Source: Opitutales bacterium (GTDB lineage: Bacteria > Verrucomicrobiota > Verrucomicrobiia > Opitutales > JABSRG01). From it: a stretch of DNA of 46,986 bases. The notes beneath the pieces are model-generated. The model had not been told where the DNA came from. It ran no database searches and was given only the letters and a program-made list of their open reading frames with translations. The stretch is from the NCBI GenBank assembly GCA_049599475.1, contig JBMYOQ010000029.1, positions 1-46,986 on the forward strand, read 5' to 3'. The position numbers were made by a program, and so were the translations under genes. This document shows, piece by piece, positions 5,814-22,972 of this stretch; position 1 is the first letter of the stretch, and each line of letters opens with the position of its first letter.

Positions 5814-5846
5814 ACCATACGAGGAAACTCAATACACTTTATCGCG

Positions 5847-8800
5847 ATGCACCCGCTCAAAACTTTTACGACCAGCCTACTCTTCCTCTGCGCTACCCTA
5901 GGCTTCGCGCAGATCAACGACGCGTTATTCACGGTAGGGACCACGACCCGAGGCCAAGATTCTCGAGACTGGGCCTACATTCTATGGCAAAGCGAGGACC
6001 TCGATCTTCTTTCAGGAGGGAATGTCGCAATTTACCGAAAAGACGGAGACGCTACGTCGATAAACCCTTATAGTTTCGAGGGGTTAACATCTCTCCAAAC
6101 CAATACCACTGCGATTCGTGCGCTCCTCCAAAAGGGTGCTCAAATCGGCGACGACCTTCTAGTATTGGATGAACGCATTACAGACATGTTCGATATTCCG
6201 TTCTCCGGAGATCTTGAACTTGAAGATAAAGTCTCGGCCATCATGCAAGCAGCACAAGTCGACGAACGATACTTTGAGAATGTGGTGTTGCTTTCTCGGC
6301 TACATCCAGCCCTGAGCCTCTGTATGGGCCAATCTTGGGCTAGCCCAATTCCAGGCGGAATCAGCACTTTCGAAGTTCGCTACTGCGACGATGGCGACGT
6401 GCTCGACCCAGACAATGACTGCGTTCGCGTAATTGGCCGGATAACCGTAGATAGCCTCAACCCCCAATCCTTGCCATCTCCGGGCCCCGTCGTGGAAGTC
6501 CCCATTGGAGATGGGAGTGCAGTACAACGCGACCTCAACCTGCGCATGCGCTGGGGCACACCCGATCCTTTGCGTGAACTATCTCTCCTTTACTTCGGCT
6601 TTGATGTATACCGTGTCACGAAGACATTTGGCGATAGCCAGGGATGGAATGTTACTGCCCCGCTCCCCTCCGAGATTATCGCAGCCGCGGAGACTCCAGG
6701 GACGAGTGATAGCGTGGCGCGCGTCAATGATCTCCCAATCCTGGTTGATACAGATTTAACCAACACTGAGGCCGCAGACTTAAGTGACTATCAAACCTTT
6801 TTCCATATCGACGACAACGGACGTTTCCTCCCAGGTGGCGAACCCTTCGCGAACGGGTCACAATTCTACTATTTCGTCGCAGCTCGCGATGTCCTGGGAA
6901 GGATCGGCGAGCTTTCTGACCCGAGCCTAGTCACGATATGCGATCAGCTCCCTCCACCATCTCCGGCAGATGTGTCTGTAGAAAACACATACGTTTTCGA
7001 AGAAGGTAATCGCAAACAACATCTCAAAGTGCTTTGGCAAGCACCCGAACTCGATGCCGATGAAGCGAGCGAAATAGCGACCTATGAAGTTTATCGCTGG
7101 GAGAGCTCAGATGATTTTGTGCAAAATAGAACCAGCGCCCACCTATATCGCATCGCGACCCTTTCAGCATCCAGTTCAGTCGATGGGTTCTTTGAATACA
7201 CGGATAAAGGTCCCGGAGCTCCTGAAGCCCCAACCGACTACGGCAAAACATTTATCTACACCGTTCGCGCGACGGACTCTTCGGCTTGCGGTGGGAATTA
7301 TTCACCTCATTCCAATACAGCACTCGGCATTCTGCGTGATCGCGAGGGGCCCGGTCCCTTCGATCCGGAGGGAGTTCTCACCATTGAATGTGGGGAACCA
7401 GAAATCGTTGATCATACAACTCAACTACAAGCAAAAGCTGAGAACGACGATATTCTGTATTACTATTTCGAATTCAGCGCCCTTGCCCTCAATGACACGA
7501 ATTTGTTCGCAATCGAATACTGGCTAGGGACCGTTGGTTCACCAAACGAGTTGATCACCACACAAATCTTTCCTGGAGATTTAAACAGCACAGATCCCTT
7601 CGCTTGGAGTATCTTGAAGAATAATTGGACTTCCGATACACGCTTCTTCGCCCGGGCGTTCACATACGGGAACAATGCTTCGAGCTATTATGAAATTGCC
7701 GTCGTTCCTCCTGCAGATGGTACGCCGACCACCAGTATAGAATTCCTGGCGGACTACACACTCAACCTCACTTCACCTGCACCAGGATGCAACACCCACG
7801 AAATTCGCAATGATGATGGCTCCATCAATCCCATAGATTTCTTCTTTGTTTGGCCATCTGGCGCTGAGTCTTACAGGCTCTATCGATCAGTTGACGACGG
7901 ACCACAAACATTCGTCGCCGAAGGTAGCCGCGATCTCTATGCGGATTCACCCGTAGAAGAGGCTCAAGCACTCGACCCCAACCCTCCTTTCAATGCGTCA
8001 TCGATTTGTTACTACATTCAATTCTTTGATGTTCACGGCAATCCGAGCCAAATGTATGACCTGGGTTGTATTGAAACCACTGCGCGCACGAAGCCACCTA
8101 CACCTCTTTTAACCCAAGGTGAGTCCCTGGGAGATCACGACAATCCTATCGCTCGTATTCGTTGGCTATGCTCACCGTATGGCGTCGAGCGCTTCGTTCT
8201 ATGGATTTCTCCAATCAATCAACCACCTCTAGAGACTTTGAACGATGATGACCTGGAGACCTTCCTCCCGACCCTTCCGATCGTAAGCGGAGATCCTGCT
8301 CAATTTGCATCATTCCGCACTGGCCGCGTCGGTGCTAGCTTCATCGCACAAAGCCCAGGTGATTTCGCAGTGGAATTTCCTGTAGAGGTCGGTGTCCAGT
8401 ATAGAATAATCGCTACGTCCCTAGACTCCGCAGGTACTCTCAGCGATCTTTCCAATGAGATTCAATATTCTTGGACCGGTGAAGATTTCGATGGCCCGGT
8501 CGTTCCCTGGCCTTGGCGTCCCGTCCCCAGCAGCGTAGGAACCGCCTCCATCGACAGCAAAATCGTTGCAGAGTATTTCAACGATGTGGGTATCGGTATT
8601 CGCTTTGGCGATACGGCTATTCCAAACGGCGAAACGCTATCTTCACCTGGGTTCAATGTGGAAGTAGCCGTCCCACTGGATACATTCATCTATTCAGACA
8701 GTGTCGGTAAAAGTCTTTTTCCTGCAGCGATTTATCGGGTGCAAGTGAGCAATGATCTTTTCCCAAATGTATCCGGGGATGTCGTCCAAGTATCACCGCT

Positions 8801-9044
8801 CTTCGAACTCGAGAACCTGGCAACAGGTATCAATTCGAAACAGGGAAGCCCTGATACTTACCAGATTCTCGAGCCCTACATCTTCGTCGCCTATGACAAC
8901 GACGGAAGTACCGGACATGGTTTGTATCTCGCGGACACCAATCCAGTCCTCGGCGGGGCAGACTACACTTACTTCATTCTTCGATTCTCTGAAACAGGAG
9001 AGATCGATCGTATCTTCACAACCAATACCGTTAGCGTTCCATAA
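5847..9044 (+). CDS. Secreted protein with multiple fibronectin type III-like domains
   Basis: Signal peptide MHPLKTFTTSLLFLCATLGFA|Q; repeated FN3-like patterns (LRMRW..GFDVYR..YYFVAARD..G..S; LKVLW..YEVYR..YTVRATD; YRLYRSVD). Confidence 0.8.
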   Translation: MHPLKTFTTSLLFLCATLGFAQINDALFTVGTTTRGQDSRDWAYILWQSEDLDLLSGGNVAIYRKDGDATSINPYSFEGLTSLQTNTTAIRALLQKGAQIGDDLLVLDERITDMFDIPFSGDLELEDKVSAIMQAAQVDERYFENVVLLSRLHPALSLCMGQSWASPIPGGISTFEVRYCDDGDVLDPDNDCVRVIGRITVDSLNPQSLPSPGPVVEVPIGDGSAVQRDLNLRMRWGTPDPLRELSLLYFGFDVYRVTKTFGDSQGWNVTAPLPSEIIAAAETPGTSDSVARVNDLPILVDTDLTNTEAADLSDYQTFFHIDDNGRFLPGGEPFANGSQFYYFVAARDVLGRIGELSDPSLVTICDQLPPPSPADVSVENTYVFEEGNRKQHLKVLWQAPELDADEASEIATYEVYRWESSDDFVQNRTSAHLYRIATLSASSSVDGFFEYTDKGPGAPEAPTDYGKTFIYTVRATDSSACGGNYSPHSNTALGILRDREGPGPFDPEGVLTIECGEPEIVDHTTQLQAKAENDDILYYYFEFSALALNDTNLFAIEYWLGTVGSPNELITTQIFPGDLNSTDPFAWSILKNNWTSDTRFFARAFTYGNNASSYYEIAVVPPADGTPTTSIEFLADYTLNLTSPAPGCNTHEIRNDDGSINPIDFFFVWPSGAESYRLYRSVDDGPQTFVAEGSRDLYADSPVEEAQALDPNPPFNASSICYYIQFFDVHGNPSQMYDLGCIETTARTKPPTPLLTQGESLGDHDNPIARIRWLCSPYGVERFVLWISPINQPPLETLNDDDLETFLPTLPIVSGDPAQFASFRTGRVGASFIAQSPGDFAVEFPVEVGVQYRIIATSLDSAGTLSDLSNEIQYSWTGEDFDGPVVPWPWRPVPSSVGTASIDSKIVAEYFNDVGIGIRFGDTAIPNGETLSSPGFNVEVAVPLDTFIYSDSVGKSLFPAAIYRVQVSNDLFPNVSGDVVQVSPLFELENLATGINSKQGSPDTYQILEPYIFVAYDNDGSTGHGLYLADTNPVLGGADYTYFILRFSETGEIDRIFTTNTVSVP

Positions 9045-9046
9045 AA

Positions 9047-12000
9047 ATGATACGGAATATACACCTCAGATCCTGCACTTTTGTAGGGCTCGTACTCCTG
9101 CTGACTCTGCCATTCGCACGCGCAAGGGATCCCTTTCTCACGGAGACGCATAACGATCTCATTCTCCACGTCGATGTGAATGGCGACTCCCTAGTCGACA
9201 CAGTTCTGGCAGACAAAGCAGGGGCCACCATCGTGGTCGGACTCAATTTGGGTCCAGAAAAAGCACTCGTCTGGACTAATGTTATGCGCGTGAATGGATT
9301 CGAAGGAATCGATGGTCTGGCATTTGGTTCATTTGGCCCTAATGGGGTTGACGCAATCGCGGTTAGCCATCGAGCCTCCAACCGAGTGGCATTATTTGAA
9401 GAAACTGAGAACATTCTGAGAGCGCTATCTCCAGCACAGATTTTCCCAAGTAACATCGGCCCCGACGAGTTGGTTTCAATGCGCTTAGGGAGTATTGATA
9501 CCGCACTCGGCGAATTACTCGTCCAAACAACATTCAATGGGGCCGTTTCAGATGCCCAAGAAGGCCTGTATTACGAATTGGATCAACTGAACCACACTGG
9601 AGCGGGAACCAACCTACAGGGAGCAAAACATCTCCAACGCCTGCGGTGGAATGATTCTGATCTACCTGTTTTGGGAGTCATCCGCGAAGCCGAAGGGAAC
9701 GCATTCCTAGAGCTGTACGAAATGAAAGAATTCAAGGATAGCGGCCCGAAAAAGCTGATAGATGGATCCTATTCAGTTTCAAGCGGATCCAAGTACGCCT
9801 GGTCCATGCTAGAGAGCGAATCCTCAATCGCATTCACATACGTAACCGGAGGGAACACCATAAAAGGAGCTCTTCTTAGATCAGGAGCTTTGGAGGATGC
9901 ATTCTCTTACAATGAGCTGGGGAAGGGCACAATAGATATGCTTATGGCCTTCCAAAGCAGCGCCGGGGTCCGCCTCTTTTCGTTTCTCAGCGACGGATCT
10001 GTTCGTATCCTTGAAATGGATACACGCCTGAATATCGAATTGGATAACTTAATAACGCCTCTTAAGGGATTCGAATTTTCCTCTGCGAGTCCGATTGATT
10101 CAGATAATTTCTCACTAACCTCTATCTCTGGCGACACTGAATCCTATGAATTTTACGGATACGATGGTCGCGAACACAGAAGTCTTGGAATCAAAGAACC
10201 ACTGCCCTCTCGAAAGATCGCTCCTTCCCCGGATAATCTGTTCGTTTTCACAAACGAACCTTTCATCACATCTCAGCCCATTCTTGTATCTCGTGACCAA
10301 AAAGGAGATTGGACATCTCAGCCTGTGTTGAGCCCGGAAGAAACCACCGTTGAAGATTTTGACAACCCGAGCCAAGGTCTAGGCATTCCAACGACTAATG
10401 TAAGTTTCACAGATTATTCTGATGGCAATGGAAGATTCGTCTTAGGCAATCAGGTCCGTCCAGACATAGCCCTTTACAGTTTCGAAAGTCGCGTGGGCGC
10501 TGTCATTAGCGAGCTGGCCGCGGACCCCAGATCCGGCCAATATTCAGATTCAATCCAGGTTGCGCTGACAGCGGATAATCCGCAGGTACTCGTCTATTGG
10601 TCTATCGACGGAGATTGGTCCCCCTACACAGGGCCGATCCCGATATTTTCCGACTCCACTCTCTATTTCTTCGCTGAAGATAAAGATGATGGATCGCGCT
10701 CACCCATTTTTTCCGAAGACTACACCTTCATCCTACCCATCGAGTCTCAAGATGCAGACGGTGATCTAGTGCCCGATTTCGTCGAAGTAGATTTCGGTCT
10801 AGATCCGTTTCTCAGTGGCAATGACGCCGACGGTGATGGTGCCTTCGACCTGGAAGAAATCCTCGAAGGCAAGGATCCAAACGATGCAGGCGATACTCCT
10901 CCTTCGCAAGATCTCGCACTCTACCGATCAGCCTTCGACCTGGGCGCTATTCCGGAGGCCCACTCAGGATTGAGCTCTTCACCCCTGCGCTCACCACTAT
11001 CAGGAGATGATGCGTCTGCCGCCCTGCTAGAAGTCCATGAACTGCTCGATGCGATACTAGATCAGAAAGCAGTCAGCGCCGGCGCAATCCCTGGCGAGCC
11101 ACTACCCTCCGCCGTATTCGATGCGCTTCCGGGCGACACAGAAAACGGTTTTTTACTCCTCGCAACGCAAGCTTCCTACTCAATCTCAGTCTCCGGATCA
11201 ATCGAACCCATCGGACGAGAAATGCTTAGCTTAGTATCCATTCCGACCTTTGAAAACAGCGTGGTCCCCTATACCTTTTCAGAAGCGACGCTTGCCGATG
11301 GCGTTACTGCATGGATCGACGCAGCAAGTACCTACTATGAGTCTCAAGAGAGATCTCGTATCGACGAGCTCCTTACATTGGAATCTACAGCCAAATTTCT
11401 GATTTTCGAGAACATAATAGCCAGCTTATTCCACGACCGAGGAGACATCCCCTACCCAGCGGTGAGCCTAAGCCCCCACAGGGAAAGCGAAAGTGCGATT
11501 TCATTCGGAGACAGCCCAGACGAAGATCAGGTGCTCTACTTTACTCCGACAGGATCGGAACTTCTGGCACTTTCACAGTATCAAGAAAGCGCAGACAATG
11601 GCTACGACTTGGAGCTTCTGTTTTCCCAGATATCTGACGAGCTGGACAGCCCCACGAGTGCCTCATCATCCGCATTCCTTACTCTGGTCGAGGAAGTCTA
11701 TCGAATCGCCACTGCAGGCAGTGAATCACTTGGCAGCTTCCGGTCCCCAGTCGACACGCTCAGGGATTTCCTCAGGTATGGTCAACTCAATGCCAACTAC
11801 GCGGCAGCAGTGAGTGATAATTCTGGAATCACTGGCCTGAACGCGAGCACCCTCCTCGTTGCAGCAGATGTACCTACAGTCTTCACATCAGATCTTCCAG
11901 AACTCAGCGTAGACACGCGCACCTTGATTGTGACTCATGCAAACGAATCCGGCGCTATCCTCACAAGCGACGATAGCGTAGTCCCTGCATTGAGCGTTGC

Positions 12001-12598
12001 TGTGCTTTACTCGGAAGTGAGCTCTCTCGCAAATCAATCGTTTGGCCTCCTTCCAGAGACTACCATTCTTGTCACAGGGTATGTAGAAGACCCAAGTGAC
12101 AACCCATGGTCAGCTGATATGGTTCTAGATCCGATCAGCATTGAGTTACTTTCGGTTCCAACACCACAACAGGTAGACTCCAACAATAACCTCCTCGAAG
12201 ACTCCTTTGAAACTATCTTTTTTGGCGGGCTAACCGCAGGCCCTCTGGGAACAGATTCCGACGACGATGGGTTCAGCGATTTCCAGGAAGCCATCGAAGG
12301 CACGTCGCCCACTGACGGCCTGAGCTTTCCTTCAGGCTTCGCATTCTCACCCAGCCTACAAAACATACAAATGTTCGTGGATCTCGTAGCAGATGAATTC
12401 GTAATGCAATTCAACTACCCAGGCATCTTTTCCGAACAGGTGAACTTCGACATATACCAATCTGATGATCTTCGGACTTGGTCACCGACGGGTGTCCAAG
12501 CCACATACCTCGGCAACGGTAGCTGGGAAGCCAGTGTCGCCCAACCCCCACTCAGTCCAAAAAAATTCTTCCGTAGCGTGTTGAGCCTGGCGCCTTAG
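9047..12598 (+). CDS. Secreted surface protein: FG-GAP/VCBS-like N-terminus, chitobiase/Fn3-associated domain, thrombospondin-3-like Ca-binding repeats, putative verrucomicrobial C-terminal sorting domain
   Basis: Signal peptide; VDVNGDSLVD; PRSGQYSDSIQVAL..YWSIDG..YTGPI; DADGDLVPDFVE, DADGDGAFDLEE, DSDDDGFSDFQE; ends YQSDDLRTW...KKFFRSVL. Starts 2 nt after the upstream stop codon. Confidence 0.8.
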   Translation: MIRNIHLRSCTFVGLVLLLTLPFARARDPFLTETHNDLILHVDVNGDSLVDTVLADKAGATIVVGLNLGPEKALVWTNVMRVNGFEGIDGLAFGSFGPNGVDAIAVSHRASNRVALFEETENILRALSPAQIFPSNIGPDELVSMRLGSIDTALGELLVQTTFNGAVSDAQEGLYYELDQLNHTGAGTNLQGAKHLQRLRWNDSDLPVLGVIREAEGNAFLELYEMKEFKDSGPKKLIDGSYSVSSGSKYAWSMLESESSIAFTYVTGGNTIKGALLRSGALEDAFSYNELGKGTIDMLMAFQSSAGVRLFSFLSDGSVRILEMDTRLNIELDNLITPLKGFEFSSASPIDSDNFSLTSISGDTESYEFYGYDGREHRSLGIKEPLPSRKIAPSPDNLFVFTNEPFITSQPILVSRDQKGDWTSQPVLSPEETTVEDFDNPSQGLGIPTTNVSFTDYSDGNGRFVLGNQVRPDIALYSFESRVGAVISELAADPRSGQYSDSIQVALTADNPQVLVYWSIDGDWSPYTGPIPIFSDSTLYFFAEDKDDGSRSPIFSEDYTFILPIESQDADGDLVPDFVEVDFGLDPFLSGNDADGDGAFDLEEILEGKDPNDAGDTPPSQDLALYRSAFDLGAIPEAHSGLSSSPLRSPLSGDDASAALLEVHELLDAILDQKAVSAGAIPGEPLPSAVFDALPGDTENGFLLLATQASYSISVSGSIEPIGREMLSLVSIPTFENSVVPYTFSEATLADGVTAWIDAASTYYESQERSRIDELLTLESTAKFLIFENIIASLFHDRGDIPYPAVSLSPHRESESAISFGDSPDEDQVLYFTPTGSELLALSQYQESADNGYDLELLFSQISDELDSPTSASSSAFLTLVEEVYRIATAGSESLGSFRSPVDTLRDFLRYGQLNANYAAAVSDNSGITGLNASTLLVAADVPTVFTSDLPELSVDTRTLIVTHANESGAILTSDDSVVPALSVAVLYSEVSSLANQSFGLLPETTILVTGYVEDPSDNPWSADMVLDPISIELLSVPTPQQVDSNNNLLEDSFETIFFGGLTAGPLGTDSDDDGFSDFQEAIEGTSPTDGLSFPSGFAFSPSLQNIQMFVDLVADEFVMQFNYPGIFSEQVNFDIYQSDDLRTWSPTGVQATYLGNGSWEASVAQPPLSPKKFFRSVLSLAP

Positions 12599-12667
12599 GC
12601 GGAATGGATTTACATCGAATATCGCTCTGCAATTGAGTTTTTTCATGTAGTGTGTGACTCGTATTCT

Positions 12668-13339
12668 ATGGTCGCACTTCTGAAGTTCCTTCGTACCTAC
12701 TGGCCTTTGGCGATTATTTTCGCCGTCTGTATCCTTGCGTTCTTGGTGGATCTCGTGGCCTTTGCCCAAGACATCTGGATTTCTCAAAATCTCTTGATGG
12801 TTCCACACAAGATTTCAGGAGCCTGGGAGAACTTGCTGGCCGGCAATCTCGGATGGGGCTCGCTAAGCCCTCTAAGTACGCTAGTAAGCTACGCCTTTTT
12901 CCACGCGGACTTTGGCCACATCTTTTGGAACCTGCTGTTCATATGGATATTTGGCTCTTTGGTTCTACGCGAACTCGGCGCAGTTTGGTTTTTCATCTGC
13001 TATTTCTTGGCGGCGATCGCCGGGGGCCTCGCGCAGACTCTTTTAGACCCCCAGTCGACCATACCCACGCTTGGTGCTTCAGGGGCGCTCATGGGCCTAG
13101 AGGGCATCTACTTCGGCATGGCAATGCGCTGGCGATTACCGAATCCTGATGTATGGCCCATCGCCGAACCGATTCCTCAGGAACGTCTCATGATTCTAGC
13201 CGGATTCGGCATTCTCATGGACATTTCAGGCGTCATAGGCCAGAGCGGAAACATCGCCTACGGAGCCCACATCGGCGGATTCATCTGCGGCATGTTTTTG
13301 GCAACCGTCGTAATTCCAAGGCCGCGGAATGCACAGTAG
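12668..13339 (+). CDS. Rhomboid family intramembrane serine protease
   Basis: HADFGHIFWN, catalytic GASG and AHIGG motifs; multiple TM helices. ATG at 12668 preferred over the ORF-track GTG at 12650. Confidence 0.92.
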   Translation: MVALLKFLRTYWPLAIIFAVCILAFLVDLVAFAQDIWISQNLLMVPHKISGAWENLLAGNLGWGSLSPLSTLVSYAFFHADFGHIFWNLLFIWIFGSLVLRELGAVWFFICYFLAAIAGGLAQTLLDPQSTIPTLGASGALMGLEGIYFGMAMRWRLPNPDVWPIAEPIPQERLMILAGFGILMDISGVIGQSGNIAYGAHIGGFICGMFLATVVIPRPRNAQ

Positions 13340-13371
13340 ATTAGGTAAAATGCAGGTCTATACAGACGCTG

Positions 13372-15357
13372 CTATTTCAAAATATAGTCTATGGTATTCT
13401 GAACAGGATCGCCAACGTAGAGCTCCTCGATCATCGCTTGAGCCACATCCAGAGCTTCTTTGGCAGATCCGTATTCCTCCTCGTTGAGATATTTATGAAT
13501 TTGCGTGGTGAGGATCGAAGACACAGCAGGATATGTCACCATTTGGGGCCGATTACGATACATCCCATTTACAAACACATTGCGGGCATATTTTAGCGCA
13601 TCGTTCTGCTGATAGACCTCATCGAGTACGCTATCGATGACTGGGACACGAATTGCCGTGCGGATACGCCCATCAGGCATAATACTTTTTTCAAGGCTTC
13701 GTCTCCTCTGATATTTTTCACTCACCAAAAAGGAAATAATCTCGGCTGCGGCCTCTTGGGTCCCTTTCTCCAAAGCGTAAGGGGTTATTGCATACATCGC
13801 CCCTCCAAGCGCACTGAAGCCAGTATCTTCAAATGAGCTCTTAAAAGACAAGGGCCTAGCAATAGGGCGAACGGAGCCCATGTTTGGGTATTCTATGCCT
13901 TCATCAAAGCGCTGAAGGCTAGTGGTCCAGTTTCGCATCGCAAAAGACTTTCCCTGAGCAAAATGGCGCTCACTCGACTTTTCGTTCAGCCCAAAGGTCC
14001 CTTTCTGAATGTCTCTAGCTCGAAACGAAGCTGGGTCGATAAACTGAATTTCGACCATCTCTCGAATCCATTCCACCGTCTCGATCATCTTTGCATTATT
14101 CACATGCGGCGGTTTCTTCCTGTTGGGAACCGCGATGTTTCCCCCGCGGGCCCACAGGAATTCGAGTAGGTTGCACATAAAGCCTTCGTAATTCGCTCCC
14201 TGAATCACGACACCCGTCCAGTCTTTATATTGCTCTTGTTGGCGAAGCTCCAAAAAGAGTTCGACGAAGTCTTCCCAACTTTCTGGATCCTCTTTGACAT
14301 GATCTCCGCGCACCATAATTGCACTTACACTCGTGTAATAAGGAATCGCGTGGACGAGCAGTCCGGTATTACCTCCTTCCGGCAGCAATACACTCGCAGC
14401 CTTTTCCCGTAAACCAGACGATAATTTTAACTGGTCTATCTCGTCGAATTCTTGCAGGGAAACTACCTTGCCTGACTCCGCAAACAACTGAAGCCAGTGG
14501 TGGTCGAGCTCCATAATCTCAGGCTGAAAATCATCGTTTCGTTCAAATTCGAGTAGAATAGACCTCAGCAGTTCCGATACATTCTGATGTAATGGGTCAT
14601 CAACAGTTTGAGATGCATCGAGAGCAGGATCATTATAATCCAAGACTACTTCAAGGTTCGCCAAACCTTGATTCGAGAGATCCAAGTTAAAACTCTCCAT
14701 CTGGGTCTCGCGCGTCTCTGCGTTACCAAATTTCCCATCAAAATTCCCGGCGACTCCAAGAACCACAGGTTGGCTGAATGAATTGAGGAAAAGGACAACG
14801 CAGACAAGCAATACGGCAACGATTGAACTCCCCCATATAAATCGCTTCTTCCGCGCTTTGGCGCGCTTTTCAAACTCAAGATCCGCAGCTCGCTTCTTCT
14901 TTGGCTTCGGCCCTGGGTCTGGCGTCTTAGGCTCTTGAGTGGCGGATCCCTTTCCCCCTTTCAACGCCGCGATAACGACCTGAGAAAGCTCTTCAATCTT
15001 TTCCTCCATCGGAGGATCGATAGCCTCAAGCCAGTGCGTGGTACTTAAATAGTAAGCCAGGTTTCCCCCGGGACTCAGGCGCTCAATTCTAAGAGGTATG
15101 ATTGTTTTACCCTCCGTTACCGCTTGATGCACTTCACGCGACACGTGCTCGGACTCGTTTGATGAGCTGGAGAAAACGAGGATTACAACCGACGCTTCAC
15201 TGATTGCCGAAACAATCTGCTTCGGCCAACTCTCGCCAGGCACGACATCCCGGGGCGCTATCCAACAAGGAATTCCTTTGCCCTCAAAGCGAGCGCAGAC
15301 AGCATCTGCGATGAGTTTGTCGTTTTTTGAGAAAGAGATAAAAACTTTATGTGCCAC
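13372..15357 (-). CDS. TIR domain - single TM - extracytoplasmic sugar-binding (family 1 SBP, trehalose/maltose type) fusion protein
   Basis: TIR_2 motifs VFISFS..D, CWIAPRDVVPGESW, S..VSREV (putative catalytic Glu); basic linker then TM FIWGSSIVAVLLVCVVLFL; SBP motifs AIPYYTS, PESWED, QGANYEGFMCN..E..W..GG, FAMRNW, LGG, RP..Y..VS. Confidence 0.88.
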   Translation of the reverse strand: MAHKVFISFSKNDKLIADAVCARFEGKGIPCWIAPRDVVPGESWPKQIVSAISEASVVILVFSSSSNESEHVSREVHQAVTEGKTIIPLRIERLSPGGNLAYYLSTTHWLEAIDPPMEEKIEELSQVVIAALKGGKGSATQEPKTPDPGPKPKKKRAADLEFEKRAKARKKRFIWGSSIVAVLLVCVVLFLNSFSQPVVLGVAGNFDGKFGNAETRETQMESFNLDLSNQGLANLEVVLDYNDPALDASQTVDDPLHQNVSELLRSILLEFERNDDFQPEIMELDHHWLQLFAESGKVVSLQEFDEIDQLKLSSGLREKAASVLLPEGGNTGLLVHAIPYYTSVSAIMVRGDHVKEDPESWEDFVELFLELRQQEQYKDWTGVVIQGANYEGFMCNLLEFLWARGGNIAVPNRKKPPHVNNAKMIETVEWIREMVEIQFIDPASFRARDIQKGTFGLNEKSSERHFAQGKSFAMRNWTTSLQRFDEGIEYPNMGSVRPIARPLSFKSSFEDTGFSALGGAMYAITPYALEKGTQEAAAEIISFLVSEKYQRRRSLEKSIMPDGRIRTAIRVPVIDSVLDEVYQQNDALKYARNVFVNGMYRNRPQMVTYPAVSSILTTQIHKYLNEEEYGSAKEALDVAQAMIEELYVGDPVQNTIDYILK

Positions 15358-15479
15358 GTCTAATTTAATTTTAGTCCAAGCCAGCCGGATTCATTCCAAG
15401 CCCTGTATTTATCTACAGCTTAATCCACTGAGCCTACAGTCAAAGCTGTCGCTGAAAGGCACCTGTTGAACAATTACGA

Positions 15480-17783
15480 CTACTCGTCCACCTCTTTGCG
15501 ATATACCACGGACCAGTCAGACACCTCGTCAATCATATCGATAGCTAACAGATCCAGGGACTGAAGAACGGATTGAATATGCCCACCAATCGGTCCCAAC
15601 TCTGACTTATCACCCGAATGTGAAATACATTCGCTGAGCTCTAGAAATTCCTTCTTTTTATCCGCAAGAAAAGAACTCATATCCTTATAACGATCCGCAA
15701 GACGTGCCGCCTCTGTGAAGAATTTCACAGAGGCAAAAATACTAGCGAGGGTCGGCAGGACAGCACCAATGATCAGCGGAATTGCTGAAACGCTTTCATC
15801 ATTCCAACGATTGTAGACCAAAAATACCAAGAACAACAAAGTGCCGAATGCGGTTGTATTGAACACTACATTACCGAATGACAAGTTTCGGCTAATTACC
15901 TCATACCTTCCGGCATTTTTATGATGGTATTCGACTTGTCCAATCAACCAATCATTTATGAGCAAATTCAATGCATCAACATGTCCAGGGCGCCACATTC
16001 TGATCTCTTTTTTCCCGATAGAGAGCGACAAGGATCTCTTCTCTACAATGCCAGGCATATCTTCGGAGAAGGGATCTATTTCACGAATCCAAGCCCACAA
16101 AAGCCAATCCATGGCATTAGTTTCTAAATCGTTAGACAGACTCCTAGATTTAGTAACAGAAGGAGGACGCGTATGTCCAAACAACGGTAAATATCTCAGT
16201 GATCGCATGCGCTCCATGGTGTATCGAGTCACAATTGCCTTACGATTCCAACTCTTGTCCAAAGTCGCTTCTTTTCTGCTGTTTCCAAAAAATTTCCCTT
16301 TGAGGTAGATAATACCACCAAACAGCTTGCCCTCTCCATTCGCCCAGAACGAATTTAATAAAATACCTCCAACACAGAATGCCTGAAAGGAATAGATTGT
16401 AAGATCCATCAAGCGGGAAGGGTCCTCGAATGCTTCATGAACAATCGACCCGGCCAATGCAAAAATCACCAAAAGAAAATTCACCAAAAACGAACCTCGG
16501 TACCGCCCAGTATAATGTGAATTTAGTGATTTGATCACCACACGCTTACTTTCCATCGGCGGTTTGAGCCCAGGACCAAGAACAGGCTCAGTGTTCGAAT
16601 TCCCCTCAGAGTCAGCTGCTCTAGAATCAGTAGCGCTGGTGAATATAGTATCTGATACAGGGCCAACGGTGGTGTGCTCCTTCTTGCCTCCGACTCGGCA
16701 GAGAAAGACTGACTCGAAAAAACTATAAATTCTCTCATGGATTGTCTCAGCCTCTCTCTTAAACCAAGCACTCCTCCCTTGAGGAGGTTCAAACAGATCT
16801 TTCAATAGGGTAACATTCTCTGGTACCGGATGCCTCAACGTGGCCGCTGCTCGGGAGCCCTTCGTAACAGGAAATTCTGAATCATTAGCCAGAATACCAG
16901 CTAAACAGGAGAGCATTTCATCAATAGCATTCTCATTTTTGTCCGACGCACACGGACGCCTCCCACCTGCCATGCGGATCTCCTCTATGTCGTCGTCATT
17001 CCGCAGCCACACAAGGGAAGGTTCTTCCTCTTTGCCACGTAAACAAATGAATAGCACCGGGAGCTTTTGTCTTTGAGCCTCCTTCATGGTCTCAACCGTT
17101 CCACCCGCTCGATCCTCATCATAAGGGTCTACAATCGCTATCAGGCAATCGATCTGTCTCAACAAAAGCGCACTTTGTGAGCGGTGGCCGCGACGCCTTC
17201 TTACGGTCCTCAACTTTTCTCTAGACGGCGAGATATCGAACGTAGCCGGGGGCTTAGCTTCATCTAGCCCATAATGTATCAGTTCCCGTTTTTTAGGATC
17301 AAAAATCCCGTCGGCGGCGACAAAACTGTCCACCCGCTCAAAGGTCTTCTCCCAGTTTTCGATTTCGCCAATCTCCCGCTCAAAGCAATAGGGCTTCAAA
17401 GAATCATCGCTGGGATGCATCTGCTGACTAAAGGGAACGATAGCCTGAATATGTCCCTCCACATCGCTGCGACTTTTAACAGAGCTCACAAAGGTCGAAA
17501 TCGCCTGGGTATCTGAACCTTCTGCCAAGCCACACGCGAAGGTAAAGCGTGGCATTTTCTCTGTGTCATAAAAATCGATACAACTACGATTATATTTCGA
17601 ATCAATTTGTCCATAGATATCCGCTAGAAGCTGGCTCACGGCCTCGAACACTGGCGCTAAAACCTTCGGAACTGACTCTCCTTCATAAGGAACTAGACCT
17701 TTTAGATTAGCTTTCCCTGCCAAACCCACTCTTAGAGTCAGGCGCGGCTTAGGAACAAGAGACGTTTGGCCAAATATAAGCAT
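15480..17783 (-). CDS. SLOG-superfamily domain fused to two SLATT/DUF4231-like 2TM modules
   Basis: SLOG-like motifs LRVGLAG, GLAEGSD, DCLIAIVD..AGGTVET..A...LPV. First TM pair is followed by W...TRYTMERMR; second is WLIGQVEYH + TM pair + RY..M + E..DW. Confidence 0.75.
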   Translation of the reverse strand: MLIFGQTSLVPKPRLTLRVGLAGKANLKGLVPYEGESVPKVLAPVFEAVSQLLADIYGQIDSKYNRSCIDFYDTEKMPRFTFACGLAEGSDTQAISTFVSSVKSRSDVEGHIQAIVPFSQQMHPSDDSLKPYCFEREIGEIENWEKTFERVDSFVAADGIFDPKKRELIHYGLDEAKPPATFDISPSREKLRTVRRRRGHRSQSALLLRQIDCLIAIVDPYDEDRAGGTVETMKEAQRQKLPVLFICLRGKEEEPSLVWLRNDDDIEEIRMAGGRRPCASDKNENAIDEMLSCLAGILANDSEFPVTKGSRAAATLRHPVPENVTLLKDLFEPPQGRSAWFKREAETIHERIYSFFESVFLCRVGGKKEHTTVGPVSDTIFTSATDSRAADSEGNSNTEPVLGPGLKPPMESKRVVIKSLNSHYTGRYRGSFLVNFLLVIFALAGSIVHEAFEDPSRLMDLTIYSFQAFCVGGILLNSFWANGEGKLFGGIIYLKGKFFGNSRKEATLDKSWNRKAIVTRYTMERMRSLRYLPLFGHTRPPSVTKSRSLSNDLETNAMDWLLWAWIREIDPFSEDMPGIVEKRSLSLSIGKKEIRMWRPGHVDALNLLINDWLIGQVEYHHKNAGRYEVISRNLSFGNVVFNTTAFGTLLFLVFLVYNRWNDESVSAIPLIIGAVLPTLASIFASVKFFTEAARLADRYKDMSSFLADKKKEFLELSECISHSGDKSELGPIGGHIQSVLQSLDLLAIDMIDEVSDWSVVYRKEVDE

Positions 17784-17899
17784 ACTGAGATGAAGCGTAA
17801 CCTGCGCAGCAATTTGCCCACCCTATTTGCGAAATATGATAGAGTCTAGTTCTACAAACTCCCAGAAGACGCACAATAGTCCGAGCCAAGAAGCCCGTC

Positions 17900-18550
17900 T
17901 TAATCATCATCCTTCGCGGATTCTTCAGTAACCTTGAGAGAAAAATTAACACGACCTCCGGTATCAGCGACTAAAGGTTCATCATTCAACATTTCGGCCA
18001 TGCCGTTAGATTTGACCAGGAAGTTTGCAAGAAACAAGCTACGTTCGTAGAAAACGAGTGCTTCGCAATGATATCCATTTTCGTCCGCTTGTAGAAATTT
18101 GGATGGACGCGCAAACTCGTCGACGATTTCTTTTTTGGCTCCGTGAACCGCGAGGTCCATGGATGTCTCAACAATCGCGAAAGGTCCCTCATCGCCATGC
18201 ACAAATGCACAAAAAAATCCCAGGTAAGAGAGGACAGACGTTGGAGTCAACTGAGGAGGATTCTTTGCATTCATCGCATGAATTGGAGGAGAAGTCCCAT
18301 CGAGACGATGAAGATGCTCATCAAGCATCCAAGCACCCGCAACCAATCCATTTGACCACGTCAAATCTCGCGCAATTATCAAGTCCACATCATCCCACCA
18401 AGTAAGTGGCATTCTCTCTACTATGGTTGTATCAGCAGAAATAGGAACTGCGTCGTCTATCCAACCAACACGCCTGGCAAATGCATCAGTTTCCTCAGCA
18501 TTGAGTCGGATAGGTTTTATATTATAAAGAGGTATCGAAAATGGCTTCAT
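17900..18550 (-). CDS. Hypothetical protein (216 aa), translationally coupled to the upstream ankyrin ORF
   Basis: ATGA start/stop overlap at 18547-18550; globular-looking sequence with LDGTSPPIH..N, YLGFFCAFVHGDEGPF and GMAEMLNDEP segments. Confidence 0.8.
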   Translation of the reverse strand: MKPFSIPLYNIKPIRLNAEETDAFARRVGWIDDAVPISADTTIVERMPLTWWDDVDLIIARDLTWSNGLVAGAWMLDEHLHRLDGTSPPIHAMNAKNPPQLTPTSVLSYLGFFCAFVHGDEGPFAIVETSMDLAVHGAKKEIVDEFARPSKFLQADENGYHCEALVFYERSLFLANFLVKSNGMAEMLNDEPLVADTGGRVNFSLKVTEESAKDDD

Positions 18551-21192
18551 AGTGTTTCGTTAAAATATTCAGTTTCGATACTACGAAACCGTTCATAATT
18601 TAGGATTGAGGCTAGGTCAGAAGGCACTCTTTGATAGGTATCAACTGGAAGAGATTCTAGCCCAGATAAAACAGCTTCGAATGCATCAAATTCACCGTGA
18701 ATCACCAATCGATGTGTCAGCGGAAAGAAACCGGACAAATCTGGTATTATCTCTAATATCGACTCGATTACACTGGGCTGTTCTTCATCCAGGAGATGCT
18801 GGACCAAAGGGTGACTGAATTTCAAACTCTTTGGCAAAGGTTCTTCGAGCCGCTGAAAAAGAGCGAGAGATGCCTCGAGTTCAAACAAACCGGGATCTTT
18901 CTCCGGCCTGATGCCTTTGGTAAGGGCCTCTTTCAATACTTCAGTATGCCCTTTAGAAATCAACAGAAAGGCTCCGGATTCTCCTTTTTCATTCCGCTTA
19001 TCGAGAATTCCTTTAGCATGCACCAATACACTCTGTCCCACATCTTGACGGCTACTCACAAGCCAATCGAGTAAATCTTCGCCCGGGATGCATTCAAATT
19101 CCCCTTTCTCAACCAACCACTCTTCAATCAAGCGCTTTGCATCGGGAAAATGATTCGAATACTGACGTGCCTTTTCAGCATCTTCAGATCTCAGAGAGTC
19201 CGAACTAAGCAAAAGCGACACGCATTCTGATACTCGACTTGCAAGTGGTGCCCCTCCCCGAGAACTCGCGTTAAACGCAGTTACCTGAACTATTGGGTGA
19301 AGTCCGTCGACAAAATGGTGAGAGGCTGACGCATTGTTAAAAGGCTTCAAATCCTCACTAAGAAGTACAGCCAGAGCATCAGGCATGGCATTTCGAGCCG
19401 CCATAGCCAAAGGAGTGATGTGTTTTGAATTCTCCGCGTTCGGACCTACTAACAACCATTCCCTTGTTGCATTCGTCAGATATTCAGACCACAAAATTTC
19501 CCGAATAGCAGCCCCATGATTCTTCAGCGCTGCAACACGGATTACATTGTTTCCCTTTGCATCAAAAAGCTTTAGATTAGCATGAGGTAGAAGTGTCCTT
19601 ATATTTTCGAGACGAGAGTCCGTAGTCGCAAAAAATATTGGAGACTGACGGTATTCGTCTAAGACATCCACGTCACCTTTAGAGCTCACAAGGTGATTGA
19701 CAAAATAGGACTCTTTTGAGCGAGCGGCCTCATGGAATATTGTGATACCCTTTGGCCCCACGATCGATGAACTACTTTCATAAGACGGCAAGAGCCTATC
19801 AAATATCTCGATTCTTCCCGGCTGGATCGCACTTATAATCGGATGCCATTCGGCATTATCGGCCTGAGTAATATTCGCTCCCCTTTTGATTAACACATCA
19901 ACGACTTTATTTGCACCCCAGGCAGCCAACATCAAAGGAGTGTTGCCCGAAGGTGTCTCAAAATTCAGAAGATCGGGATTGGATTCAAGCCAACCGTCGA
20001 TGGTATCAGCTAGGTCATATCGAGCGGCAGTATGAAATATGGAAGTCTCACCGTTAACAACAGTGACCAATTCTTCTGGTTTCTCTGCAAGTGCCAATAT
20101 ATCTAAACAACTTTGCCTCAAACGATTATTCGAATCTGACAACTTAGCATCCATGGATGCAGCAGGCGACCAAACCGAGCGCTTGATGACTAACGTCCTT
20201 ACCGCGTTATGGATCATTTCCTTTAAATCGGAGCTTTCATCTTCAGAGTTGCGACGAATTCTCGCAGCGGTCCTTCGAAATGCTTCGATACTTGAAAGGG
20301 CTTCACGCTGCTCCTCATACCAAATCTGCGCCGGCTCCCAGTTATCAAGCAAAGCCTGATGAACAAGACGAACCCTTCCTGGCCCAGAGGGGACTAAGAG
20401 ACGCCGCTTTTCGTGAGACTCAATCAAGTCCCGCATGGATGCAATATCACTCGACTTTGGCATATCAACAAGGCGCATCTGCAAGTCATCATCTGCACTC
20501 ACGAGAGCCGACAAAAAGTTATCAAGCGCTACCGACTCCGGTATTCGCTCGGTACTCTTTCTCATTTCCATTCCGGGAACTGCTGGCAACCCGTGAGATT
20601 CTGTAGCAAAAATCCATAATACCCCATAGGCGATTTCCCTGCTCTCATTCACTCGTGATATGTAGCGCGTGACAAAATTGGGGAATGTTGCCAGATGACG
20701 ATTCGCTTCTTCAACATCCACAATATTGGGAACTCCCTTAAGTTCCATGCCAGGAAACGCTGCCAATCCTTGAATCTTAGTAGCATAAATCCAGAGAAGC
20801 CCGATATCAAACCCCTTTGGGTCAGCAGCTCGTCGTAAGAATTCCTTAATGCTAGGTGGAAGTGAGTTAACATATTCGTTTGCTAGATCTCCATCTACAA
20901 CGACCGGAAACTCCCCAATTTCTCGATCAATCATCCACCCAGCCTCTTCCCATGCGTCAGCAACCAATTCGGTCATCAATGGCGCTAAGTCGAAGAATAT
21001 CCCCCGACGCTTAATCTCACTCAGCTCTATTGCATCTGCCTCATCTGAAAAGCTCTTGGAAAAGCTGCTGCCTTCCTGGACTGTTCGATCCTGAAAGGTT
21101 GCGAACAGCCTATGAAGCCAGATACCTAGAAGCGGTAAGAACGATGCGTGAGTCTGCATGCGCCCAGGACACTTTTCAAAATCCTGAACCAT
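18547..21192 (-). CDS. C-terminal part of a frameshifted STAND NTPase: helical/winged-helix region plus about 8 ankyrin repeats
   Basis: nSTAND1-like LPLL..WL..LF, RRLLV and VRLVHQALLDNW motifs; ankyrin repeats GNTPLMLAAWG, GITIFHEAAR, QSPIFFA, GNNVIRVAA, HITPLAMAARN. The frame is open upstream to 21285. Confidence 0.82.
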   Translation of the reverse strand: MVQDFEKCPGRMQTHASFLPLLGIWLHRLFATFQDRTVQEGSSFSKSFSDEADAIELSEIKRRGIFFDLAPLMTELVADAWEEAGWMIDREIGEFPVVVDGDLANEYVNSLPPSIKEFLRRAADPKGFDIGLLWIYATKIQGLAAFPGMELKGVPNIVDVEEANRHLATFPNFVTRYISRVNESREIAYGVLWIFATESHGLPAVPGMEMRKSTERIPESVALDNFLSALVSADDDLQMRLVDMPKSSDIASMRDLIESHEKRRLLVPSGPGRVRLVHQALLDNWEPAQIWYEEQREALSSIEAFRRTAARIRRNSEDESSDLKEMIHNAVRTLVIKRSVWSPAASMDAKLSDSNNRLRQSCLDILALAEKPEELVTVVNGETSIFHTAARYDLADTIDGWLESNPDLLNFETPSGNTPLMLAAWGANKVVDVLIKRGANITQADNAEWHPIISAIQPGRIEIFDRLLPSYESSSSIVGPKGITIFHEAARSKESYFVNHLVSSKGDVDVLDEYRQSPIFFATTDSRLENIRTLLPHANLKLFDAKGNNVIRVAALKNHGAAIREILWSEYLTNATREWLLVGPNAENSKHITPLAMAARNAMPDALAVLLSEDLKPFNNASASHHFVDGLHPIVQVTAFNASSRGGAPLASRVSECVSLLLSSDSLRSEDAEKARQYSNHFPDAKRLIEEWLVEKGEFECIPGEDLLDWLVSSRQDVGQSVLVHAKGILDKRNEKGESGAFLLISKGHTEVLKEALTKGIRPEKDPGLFELEASLALFQRLEEPLPKSLKFSHPLVQHLLDEEQPSVIESILEIIPDLSGFFPLTHRLVIHGEFDAFEAVLSGLESLPVDTYQRVPSDLASILNYERFRSIETEYFNETL

Positions 21193-22679
21193 CTTATTGA
21201 TCGCTTCAATAACATTCCTGCTAAGAGGTAATCCAGCTTGGTTCGAAATCGTTGAAACAAACTGACGAAAACGCCTAAAGGAAAATCAACGTTCTCTCGT
21301 TCAGCTCTTAAATCGGTATACTTTTCTATTTCGAGAGCTCTATATGCCTCTTCTCGCATACTTTCCAAGGTCCCGACTAGATATACTTCATCCTTTTTTG
21401 AGAGTTTACCGAGAAATCGCACAACTTGCCACCAACCCCCTTTAATGTCCCGATCATACACTTCGGCCTGCAACAAATCGATGATTTCTTCGAACTGATC
21501 GATCGCCAAAATCAATTGCCTTTTGGACTCAAGAAGTAACCTCTCGACATGAGACGCCGCTCTTTCAGCTAATTTGTCTATATCAAGTATCGATTTTAAA
21601 CGGCTATTTGTCGGAATCCCCAGCTCTTCGCAGATTACTCCCCACAAACGGAAAAAGGGTGTGTGTTCGTCTCTACCAAAAAGGTGACCCACCCGAATGA
21701 CGACCACATTAGCATCAGCGAGTTTTGGAGGCAAATATTCTAGAAGGCCTTTCTGAAGTATGGAAGATTTACCACAACCACTAGGTCCTTCGAGTAGAAA
21801 TATCATGCCCTCTCGCCCGACACCTTCAAGCCTATCATGGAGCTTCTGGCGCAAATCATATCGGTCCGGCAATGAGAGTGGATCTCCGTAGTGAAAATGA
21901 TCCATGCCTCGCTTAAATGGAAGTGAGCCCGCCTTATCAGGAAGTAAATCGAGTAACACCTCTTTTGATGCAGCTGCCATCCTTTTCGACATCTGCCCGG
22001 CATCGGTGTATAGTTTCGCACGCTTCCCTTGCTGATCCGAGGCGAGCATTCTCAGTAGATTGAAGAGCGCTTTTTTTTGAGGAAAATATTCCTCTTCCTC
22101 AAATTTTTTGCGGGCCTCTAGACCTTCTTCAGTATAACCAAACTTTTTAGATTCATACAATTTGCCCTGATTAAAAGTAATATCATTAACGCTCCTAGCC
22201 GCACTAATACTCTTATTAGCGACGTATCCTACAAGGGTGCGAGTACCCTCAATCTGCCGCAAGCCAACCAGTAATTCATAGACAGTGCCCGTTAGCGGAA
22301 ACTTCCCCCGATCCAGTAGCGAATCTCGCTCACGAGGATCCTGCGGCCATGGATGAGTCAGACCAAAACTTCCCCACTCCTTCATAAGAGACTCAGCTTC
22401 ATCCGGTAATTCACCCTGCAACGGCATTCCGATACGCTCTCCGAACATTACAACCGTCAAGACTACACGTCCGCGGATTTTATCATCAATCTGCCGCTGC
22501 GCGGTGGCCCACACATTCAACGTGGTTCCACCTTTTGTCTTCTCTTCCCAAAGATACGGAATCACCGGATAACCGATAGACTGAGCAGACTCACGAAGGA
22601 GATACGCCAACTCTCCACGGGACTCTGAAAGATCATTGGACGAGGAAACTAAAACAAAGGGCTGAGAGAGATTATCCAT
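21126..22679 (-). CDS. N-terminal part of a frameshifted STAND NTPase: DUF4062/TIR-like domain plus nSTAND1 P-loop domain
   Basis: VSSSNDLSESR..WEE..QRQID..VVMFGERIG..TGTVYE (DUF4062-like); PFKRGMDHF; Walker A GPSGCGKSS; Walker B LILAIDQFEE. The last ~50 aa look out of frame. Confidence 0.82.
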   Translation of the reverse strand: MDNLSQPFVLVSSSNDLSESRGELAYLLRESAQSIGYPVIPYLWEEKTKGGTTLNVWATAQRQIDDKIRGRVVLTVVMFGERIGMPLQGELPDEAESLMKEWGSFGLTHPWPQDPRERDSLLDRGKFPLTGTVYELLVGLRQIEGTRTLVGYVANKSISAARSVNDITFNQGKLYESKKFGYTEEGLEARKKFEEEEYFPQKKALFNLLRMLASDQQGKRAKLYTDAGQMSKRMAAASKEVLLDLLPDKAGSLPFKRGMDHFHYGDPLSLPDRYDLRQKLHDRLEGVGREGMIFLLEGPSGCGKSSILQKGLLEYLPPKLADANVVVIRVGHLFGRDEHTPFFRLWGVICEELGIPTNSRLKSILDIDKLAERAASHVERLLLESKRQLILAIDQFEEIIDLLQAEVYDRDIKGGWWQVVRFLGKLSKKDEVYLVGTLESMREEAYRALEIEKYTDLRAERENVDFPLGVFVSLFQRFRTKLDYLLAGMLLKRSIRWFRILKSVLGACRLTHRSYRF

Positions 22680-22972
22680 GAGGAAAGATCCCCACCTAAA
22701 GCGCCCAAGGATGTATTTTACAAAAACACAAATTCGACTCAGTAACCTTACGGGAGATTTCTAGAAAATTCGCTATAGAAACTCCGATGCATTTTCTAGA
22801 CCTAATTTCCGCGAAACCCTAACAATCATGCCACATTCAAGTCACAATGCGGCAAAGTTGATCTAATTGATCAAATCAGTCTCATTTAGTAACATATAAT
22901 TCCATTTAGAGTCTAATAATTGCAGAAGACCCGTGGCATTAGTTGAACATACGACTCCTAAACACTTCAACA

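Follow-up and report, generated by a model that had tools for sequence, protein, structure and literature searches.

A TIR–transmembrane–solute-binding protein fusion in an Opitutales bacterium as a possible membrane receptor of a Thoeris-like cassette

The contig JBMYOQ010000029.1 of a marine Opitutales bacterium (assembly GCA_049599475.1; positions 1 to 46,986, all 46,986 nucleotides of which are hereafter the window) carries on its reverse strand, at positions 13372..15357, a gene whose 661-residue product, P0001, joins an N-terminal TIR domain through one transmembrane (TM) helix to a C-terminal solute-binding protein (SBP). The preferred reading, to which a probability of about 45% is assigned, is that P0001 is a single-pass inner-membrane receptor and the ThsB-like signal producer of a Thoeris-like cassette; its candidate effector would be the product of the adjacent gene, a 767-residue protein with a SLOG-like N-terminal domain and a SLATT-like membrane C-terminal half (15480..17783, reverse strand). 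Every step of this mechanism beyond the gene anatomy is inferred.

The TIR_2 domain (PF13676) was identified at residues 5-113 with 76.3 bits against a Pfam cut-off of 28, and is assigned to residues 1-135 (14953..15357, reverse strand, as are all other parts of the gene); the GTG start codon at 15357 aligned with residue 1 of close TIR relatives, and the frame contains no internal stop. The putative catalytic glutamate, Glu75 (codon 15133..15135), lies in an SREV motif (S73-R74-E75-V76); a glutamate occupies this column in 95/95 TIR relatives, and Glu75 aligned with the corresponding residue of TIR-STING (6wt6) and of the TLR1 TIR domain. With this glutamate of helix C kept, the domain is predicted to be an NADase-type enzyme; it is ca. 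50% identical to many TIR-TM proteins. A Pro/Lys-rich linker (14842..14952) ends in the positive-inside signal KRAKARKKR (residues 164-172), directly followed by the only strong hydrophobic stretch of the protein, the TM helix at residues 173-191 (14785..14841; KD19 2.75). Seven Lys/Arg residues fall within the 15 positions before this helix and none after it (hydropathy and positive-inside scan); a weaker hydrophobic segment at residues 48-66 (KD 1.65) lies inside the TIR core, and four soluble SBP fusions, scanned as a control, yielded zero segments. The model predicted from a mixed TIR/SBP alignment shows a helix at residues 158-193 across the TM segment. Since the window encodes TonB-dependent receptors and ExbBD, the host cell should have a periplasm, and P0001 is predicted to place its TIR domain inside the cell and its SBP domain in the periplasm.

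These features agree with the original prediction for this gene, made from the sequence alone, which had recognized an intact putative catalytic glutamate, a Lys/Arg-rich stop-transfer segment and one TM helix. Its Toll-like topology holds by compartment (TIR inside, binding domain outside, a single TM helix) and fails by order, the TIR domain being N-terminal in a type II protein. An assembly chimera, the artefact that it had named as a danger, is not favoured: a public contig from run X1, which may be the very source of this DNA and would then not be independent, spans positions 11500-23200 and crosses the fusion unbroken with zero differences to the window, though in a second marine study (X2), which contains identical pieces of the SBP part, none among the pieces listed bridges the TIR-SBP junction. 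Promoter and terminator scans remained at chance level (12 vs. 13.4 and 9 vs. 9.9, respectively).

The SBP domain (residues 195-661; 13375..14775) is a divergent member of the TMBP/MalE3 class, as judged from AlphaFold2 and Foldseek, and is predicted to be periplasmic. Pfam identified SBP_bac_8 at residues 283-553 (36 bits; cut-off 27), and SBP_bac_1 scored 25.1 bits, slightly under its cut-off of 26. An earlier fold based on the mixed TIR/SBP alignment had left the N-lobe unresolved; remodelled from the SBP alone, residues 195-661 gave a confident AlphaFold2 model (pLDDT 89.5, pTM 0.92), with T. maritima MalE3 (6dtq) and T. litoralis TMBP (1eu8) as best Foldseek matches (E ~7e-22; TM-score by target 0.80-0.81). 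The VIA comparison with 6dtq gave a Z of 29.6 and a root-mean-square deviation of 2.9 over 309 aligned residues; sequence searches agree in placing MalE3 and TMBP closest. A homodimer prediction scored 0.00, a value read neither for nor against a dimer. That the SBP is complete, as had been proposed, is supported by structure prediction.

The binding pocket appears altered, not destroyed, since its core residues are kept and two of its contacts are changed. Conserved pocket residues of this class, as listed for Athe_2310, are D69, F119, D121, E225, W243, G278, G279, W280, and R351 (PMC12096829); in a motif alignment, seven of these nine contacts are kept in P0001 (D285, Y341, E459, W477, G518, G519, R603), W288 is likewise kept, and two are changed (D121 to S343, W280 to A520). 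T479 has changed as well, the Tyr following W477 being replaced by Thr. In LpqY, the exchanges E241A, W259A, and R404A each lead to loss of binding (PMC7949145); the counterparts of these three residues in P0001 would be E459, W477, and R603, all of which are kept. The original prediction had regarded a degenerate pocket that binds nothing as fatal to its proposal; the core Asp, Glu, Trp, and Arg residues are present, and two conserved contacts are lost. S343 and A520 stand where T. thermophilus has D118 and W287; with these two lost, plain trehalose or maltose, the ligand suggested at first, becomes doubtful. P0001 may still bind either sugar, because T. thermophilus single mutants at the D118 and W287 sites were, according to their PDB titles, still crystallized with maltose or trehalose.

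A role in sugar import can be rejected. As originally noted for the window, the 30 open reading frames (ORFs) scanned there yielded neither an ABC permease nor an ABC ATPase family. The genome of P0001 (G000, 96.6% complete) contains 14 BPD_transp_1 matches; 13 were assigned to peptide, sulfonate/nitrate, phosphonate, phosphate, amino-acid or molybdate types, and the remaining one holds a stop and is unclassified. A profile hidden Markov model built from the permeases of SBP loci (up to 120 of 128 permease segments) found no CUT1 (MalF/MalG-type) permease in G000, its single weak match being ModB (E 9e-5). Loci of related SBPs in metagenomes served as a control: a permease of this kind is present in 68 of 80, and most of the other 12 are short; no permease was found beside the closest SBP kin of P0001 in loci L006 (20 kb) and L007 (3.7 kb). 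Without a cognate permease in the window or in G000, P0001 is very probably not a transporter, and its SBP is best viewed as repurposed. The location of the gene in a defence-type island is consistent with this part of the original prediction.

The island in question measures 9,633 bp (13340..22972; GC content 46.4%) and lies between a rhomboid and a flagellin gene, which are only 39 bp apart in the same-genus genome G001 and there represent the empty site. Of 408 stretches of the same size across the genome, at most 2.5% have a GC content as low; no target-site repeat longer than 8 bp was found at its ends. The island consists of four units on the same strand: an nSTAND1-ankyrin gene, a gene for a 216-residue orphan, the gene for the 767-residue membrane protein and, directly after the latter, the P0001 gene. 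The NLR-like nSTAND1-ankyrin gene (18547..22679, reverse strand) occupies two overlapping frames (22679-21126 and 21192-18547), with a frameshift at ~21,260-21,290, where the G001 homolog runs in one frame. The N-terminal 250 residues of this STAND protein matched no family; a DUF4062/TIR-like identity was not supported (no Pfam hit; hhalign probability 1.3%; unlike the N-terminus of the G907 STAND protein). The family-less 216-residue protein (17900..18550, reverse strand) recurs between the STAND-ankyrin and the 767-residue protein homologs in G001, with 40% identity. P0001 is likely to take part in the function of this defence island.

The N-terminal part of the 767-residue neighbor resembles YpsA/DprA SLOG clusters (Atlas TM-score 0.70-0.73; cpYpsA E = 0.02) and aligns with a YAcAr-like protein of genome G929 (hhalign 98.5%); its C-terminal part reaches Atlas feature similarities of 0.93-0.95 to clusters in which 11-46% of members carry SLATT_1, SLATT_3 or DUF4231, many of these clusters being from Pseudomonadota. 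SLATT_4 matched the protein itself with E = 0.016, and SLATT_1 matched its relative in genome G752 with E = 9e-5 (NCBIfam). Three TM helices exceed the threshold, compared with three to four in the relatives; an internal duplication of two SLATT-like halves is not shown. Genome searches in four overlapping samples of 7, 401, 401, and 351 genomes traced this SLOG-SLATT family (670-785 residues) to seven genomes, G000 and six others (15480-17783 in the window; L097:10117-12474, L098:3839-5923, L101:9692-11734, L120:8851-11073, L121:8835-10997, and L122:9437-11449); no relatives occurred in the plasmids, viral contigs and PDB sequences searched. Thirty-eight residues are invariant over the seven members. 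The genes recur beside STAND, TIR, patatin or reverse transcriptase/FGE-sulfatase genes, and this unnamed family is a candidate new defence effector.

The neighborhoods of the SLOG-SLATT genes bear on the proposed coupling with P0001. A TIR_2 gene lies at most two genes 3′ of the SLOG-SLATT gene in G000, G278, G907, and G752, i.e., in 4/7 genomes (3/6 when G000 is set aside), and two of the three TIR proteins outside G000 are receptor-like, with TIR-TM-ankyrin architecture in G278 and CHASE2-4TM-TIR architecture in G752. TIR_2 matches number three in G000 and 0-6 in five of the other genomes, by a search that missed the G752 gene; a STAND gene lies upstream in 4/7 genomes. In G278, a TIR-STAND-TPR gene precedes the SLOG-SLATT gene, and a second SLATT-like gene and then the TIR-TM-ankyrin gene follow; in G907, an NB-ARC-PPR gene lies upstream and the gene for a soluble 399-residue TIR_2 protein downstream; in G752, the TIR gene is convergent, and the upstream side falls beyond the contig end. 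In G001, the STAND-ankyrin and 216-residue protein genes precede the SLOG-SLATT gene, and a reverse transcriptase follows together with FGE-sulfatase genes; in G003, the SLOG-SLATT gene lies beside a similar reverse transcriptase cassette, with no TIR seen; in G929, it is accompanied by a patatin and a small SLOG-like gene. The recurrence of TIR genes beside SLOG-SLATT genes is suggestive. One contig of X2 departs from the window right at position 15480, the stop codon of the SLOG-SLATT gene, with 37 loose letters, which weakly suggests that strains differ in what follows this gene. The cassettes in G001 and G003 (L098:5920-9097 and L097:5357-9989), each with RVT_1 and several FGE-sulfatase genes, are like those of diversity-generating retroelements (DGR).

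The SLOG-like/SLATT-like neighbor, which the original prediction had missed, points to a TIR domain that makes a messenger for a separate effector and away from direct NAD+ cleavage as the output. The model draws on two validated Thoeris types, type I, in which a TIR protein acts on a SIR2-SLOG effector, and type VII, in which TIR acts on SLATT via cyclic ADP-ribose (10.64898/2025.12.03.692087), and on the predicted role of SLATT domains (PMC7159879; PMC9503650). The periplasmic SBP would bind a small molecule of glucoside type, with trehalose or maltose as such improbable; candidates may be an envelope-glycan fragment or an osmolyte that signals attack by appearing or by being lost. Closure of the SBP lobes, or clustering, would draw TIR domains together, which would then convert NAD+ into an ADP-ribose-type messenger; the messenger would bind the SLOG-like domain of the neighbor, whose SLATT-like helices would open a membrane pore that arrests or kills the cell. 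Coupling of P0001 to the SLOG-SLATT gene is slightly favoured, and the chances that a sugar-type ligand gates P0001 appear even. A wider generalization is less likely than not: bacterial TIR immunity might include a receptor-type branch, in which membrane TIR proteins with interchangeable outside domains (SBP, ankyrin, CHASE2) watch the periplasm and act, beside a STAND sensor of NLR-like type inside the cell, on one common SLOG-SLATT pore effector. P0001 would then represent a transport binding protein converted into a sensor of sugar-type damage signals, by a route taken at least twice in evolution.

The fused architecture is rare. Among 96 matches only P0001 itself aligned over its full length, and a search with its SBP region returned one match; a profile of the divergent SBP clade discussed below matched in two genomes out of 401 from the order, and in the second of these the matching protein lacks TIR. 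Among TIR relatives, the TIR domain is followed by TM helices in 85/95 proteins, 80 of them with a single helix, a share biased toward multidomain proteins because the search was limited to 363-1157 residues; together with published caspase-TM-PBP (periplasmic binding protein) fusions, this removes the novelty that had been claimed for the topology. The C-terminal parts of these TIR-TM relatives vary widely and include a PstS-like PBP with OmpA (P0051). A second family of TIR_2-TM-SBP proteins with a TMBP-type SBP (P0219, P0247, P0248; 47-52% identical to P0219) has kept the glutamate; its TIR domain shares 35% identity with that of P0001 over 88 residues, and its SBP is canonical and falls on another branch than the P0001 SBP. 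Common ancestry of the two fusions was rejected by the approximately unbiased (AU) test of a single clade (p = 2e-136; 22 rows, a quick tree, a long P0001 branch, and a tested group named after the first tree had been seen). Since the SBPs lie on separate branches and their joint clade is rejected, the TIR-TM-SBP architecture arose at least twice. A scan of 185,579 genomes for the P0219 family found only one locus, which was unrelated.

The closest SBP kin of P0001 form a divergent clade (SH-aLRT 99-100) whose members, where complete, have 2-3 N-terminal TM helices and lack TIR; a GNGDGQ motif is conserved in this clade (L002/L006:10774-12603; P0098-P0103, P0368, P0377). In the simplest history, the SBP would have been an orphan first and would then have exchanged its membrane anchor for a TIR-TM module. 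The same SBP class occurs in kinase-TM-SBP, KaiC-SBP-AraC, and NB-ARC-SBP fusions, and signaling proteins with this class include P0290, P0292, P0136, P0182, P0187, and P0230; the KaiC-SBP-AraC and KaiC-KaiC-SBP fusions (P0136, P0182, P0187, P0230, P0161, P0139) are cytoplasmic.

Several observations weigh against the preferred reading, in which P0001 signals to the SLOG-SLATT protein. The SLOG and SLATT matches of the 767-residue protein all fall under curated cut-offs, and it has no match to a PADLOC or NCBIfam Thoeris effector, although these libraries may lack newer types. The SLOG-SLATT gene lacks a visible TIR neighbor in three of seven genomes (G001, G003, G929); the convergent TIR gene of G752 is not co-transcribed with its SLOG-SLATT gene; and the neighboring TIR proteins of other genomes are not close relatives of the P0001 TIR. 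Because defence genes tend to cluster in any case, the raw TIR counts overstate the weight of adjacency. At full length, P0001 is a singleton; its SBP sits on a long branch (1.7-1.8) and deviates at positions that the rest of its clade conserves (W520A, P478T, G345S); and the frameshifted STAND gene fits a decaying island.

Some of the same evidence has been weighed for a stand-alone receptor-effector, an idea near to the original prediction, in which the SBP senses a ligand or damage, clustered TIR domains deplete NAD+ themselves, and the SLOG-SLATT protein serves another sensor, for example the STAND protein. The retained Glu75 suits this explanation, as do the three SLOG-SLATT loci without a neighboring TIR gene and the upstream STAND protein of G278, which carries a TIR domain of its own; as far as protein sequences go, no effector context is known either for the majority of TIR-TM relatives or for the second TIR-TM-SBP family. 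It is nevertheless the unlikely option, given that TIR genes recur directly 3′ of SLOG-SLATT genes in unrelated genomes and that P0001 and SLOG-SLATT genes arrived in one insertion. The long branch and the altered pocket in an intact fold could alternatively mark the SBP as a decoy or guard, either a bait for phage or competitor proteins that target periplasmic binding proteins, or a restraint on the TIR domain while a host metabolite is bound; other receptor TIR proteins beside SLOG-SLATT genes use protein-binding ankyrin repeats, and in G001 this slot is taken by DGR-like variable binders, encoded by FGE-sulfatase genes that accompany a reverse transcriptase. The conserved polar and aromatic core of the pocket speaks against such a function, no interacting protein is known, and the explanation ranks as somewhat less credible than the stand-alone receptor.

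A decaying passenger without present function, formed when an orphan SBP with a membrane anchor happened to be fused to a widespread TIR-TM module and now carried in a degenerating island, would account for the singleton status of P0001 (the fused form occurs in 1/401 genomes of the order), the frameshift in the adjacent STAND gene and the loss of several conserved SBP positions. This is improbable for a gene whose 661-codon frame is intact, whose fold is predicted with confidence and whose Glu75 and pocket core are kept; moreover, a second family acquired the same architecture on its own and conserves it at 47-52% identity. A nutrient or osmotic receptor outside defence, with TIR as interaction or second-messenger domain in the manner of kinase-TM-SBP and KaiC-SBP-AraC proteins, is the least probable explanation. 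In its favour is the frequent recruitment of this SBP class into signaling proteins; against it stand the mobile island of low GC content, which P0001 shares with STAND and SLATT-like genes, and the search of G000, which revealed no sugar importer of this class.

Other features of the window and the host genome can be listed separately. The flagellin gene that borders the island (22973-23785, reverse strand) is an orphan, apart from six tandem flagellin paralogs on contig C1, and is also located next to the rhomboid gene in G001. On the forward strand, positions 222-12598 contain three large tandem ORFs (1863, 1065, and 1183 residues) with one CHB_HEX_C_1 repeat as their sole Pfam match and no paralogs in G000. 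Elsewhere in G000, contig C35 carries a tandem TIR-TM pair (L004:5157-8286) of a TIR_2-TM-TPR protein (724 residues) and a TIR-like-TM protein (320 residues), and similar tandem pairs occur in G001 and G003; on contig C92, a TIR_2/SEFIR-like gene (L003:6140-7624) is an insertion that separates hsdM from hsdS in a type I restriction-modification locus.

If the preferred reading of P0001 as a membrane-anchored signal producer is correct, bacterial TIR signaling would be triggered from outside the cytoplasm by a small molecule, as in the surface damage receptors of animals and plants. The small-molecule triggers of bacterial TIR proteins are usually hard to find; P0001 would offer a direct route to one, and is unusually tractable because SBPs are easily screened for ligands. 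The island and the recurrent pairing of SLOG-SLATT proteins with TIR receptors add more than the topology does. The interpretation offered at first thus stands for the repurposed SBP and is revised for trehalose or maltose as ligand, for the novelty of the topology and for a direct NAD+ sink.

A literature search that left most subscription journals uncovered found no paper on TIR combined with a solute-binding (periplasmic or substrate-binding) protein; TIR has been reported in fusion with the carbohydrate-binding domain NPCBM (PMC8195603). Much as in Thoeris, the P0001 gene, with its TIR glutamate, adjoins a candidate effector gene in a defence-type island, one that is SLOG-like/SLATT-like by sub-threshold matches and Atlas similarity. 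Thoeris TIR proteins, as described in the accessible part of the source, respond to phage infection inside the cell (10.64898/2025.12.03.692087), whereas the P0001 TIR domain is membrane-anchored and linked to a periplasmic SBP, and its candidate effector joins SLOG-like and SLATT-like parts in ca. 700-780 residues and matches no Thoeris effector model. The same source describes type III as several TIR proteins with a SLOG effector, and its 29 putative types perhaps include a similar configuration. With TMBP (1eu8), MalE3 (6dtq) and the T. thermophilus alpha-glycoside-binding protein (6j9w), the P0001 SBP shares the fold and most pocket residues; it differs in its ca. 21% identity, in the changed D118 and W287 equivalents, in that no cognate permease was found, and in its fusion to TM and TIR in place of a signal or lipoprotein anchor.

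Receptor-like death enzymes are already known in bacteria. Caspase-TM-PBP proteins of the EACC1 system (PMC7159879) and metacaspase-CHASE2/ANF_receptor proteins (PMC3501461) likewise connect a cytoplasmic death-type enzyme through TM helices to an extracytoplasmic ligand-binding domain, PBP included; they carry a caspase in place of TIR, and no SLOG-SLATT partner is described in the available portions of these sources. DGR targets, too, are predicted to face the periplasm (PMC10907252). The nearest matches in domain order, with the glutamate kept, are the second TIR-TM-SBP family (P0219, P0247, P0248) and the TIR-TM-fn3-PstS-OmpA protein P0051. Animal Toll-like receptors (TLRs) are type I proteins with the reverse domain order, an N-terminal ectodomain of leucine-rich repeats preceding TIR domains that act as scaffolds. 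P0001 is predicted to share with them a single TM helix, a binding domain outside and a TIR domain inside; it differs in its N-terminal TIR domain, in an SBP in place of leucine-rich repeats, and in a TIR domain that is predicted to be an enzyme, so that the likeness is one of analogy and not of receptor homology. We propose that P0001 functions in the manner of a Thoeris sensor relocated to the membrane, that it is neither a TLR nor an ABC component and at most a candidate Thoeris member, and that it may be a bacterial counterpart of cell-surface immune receptors.

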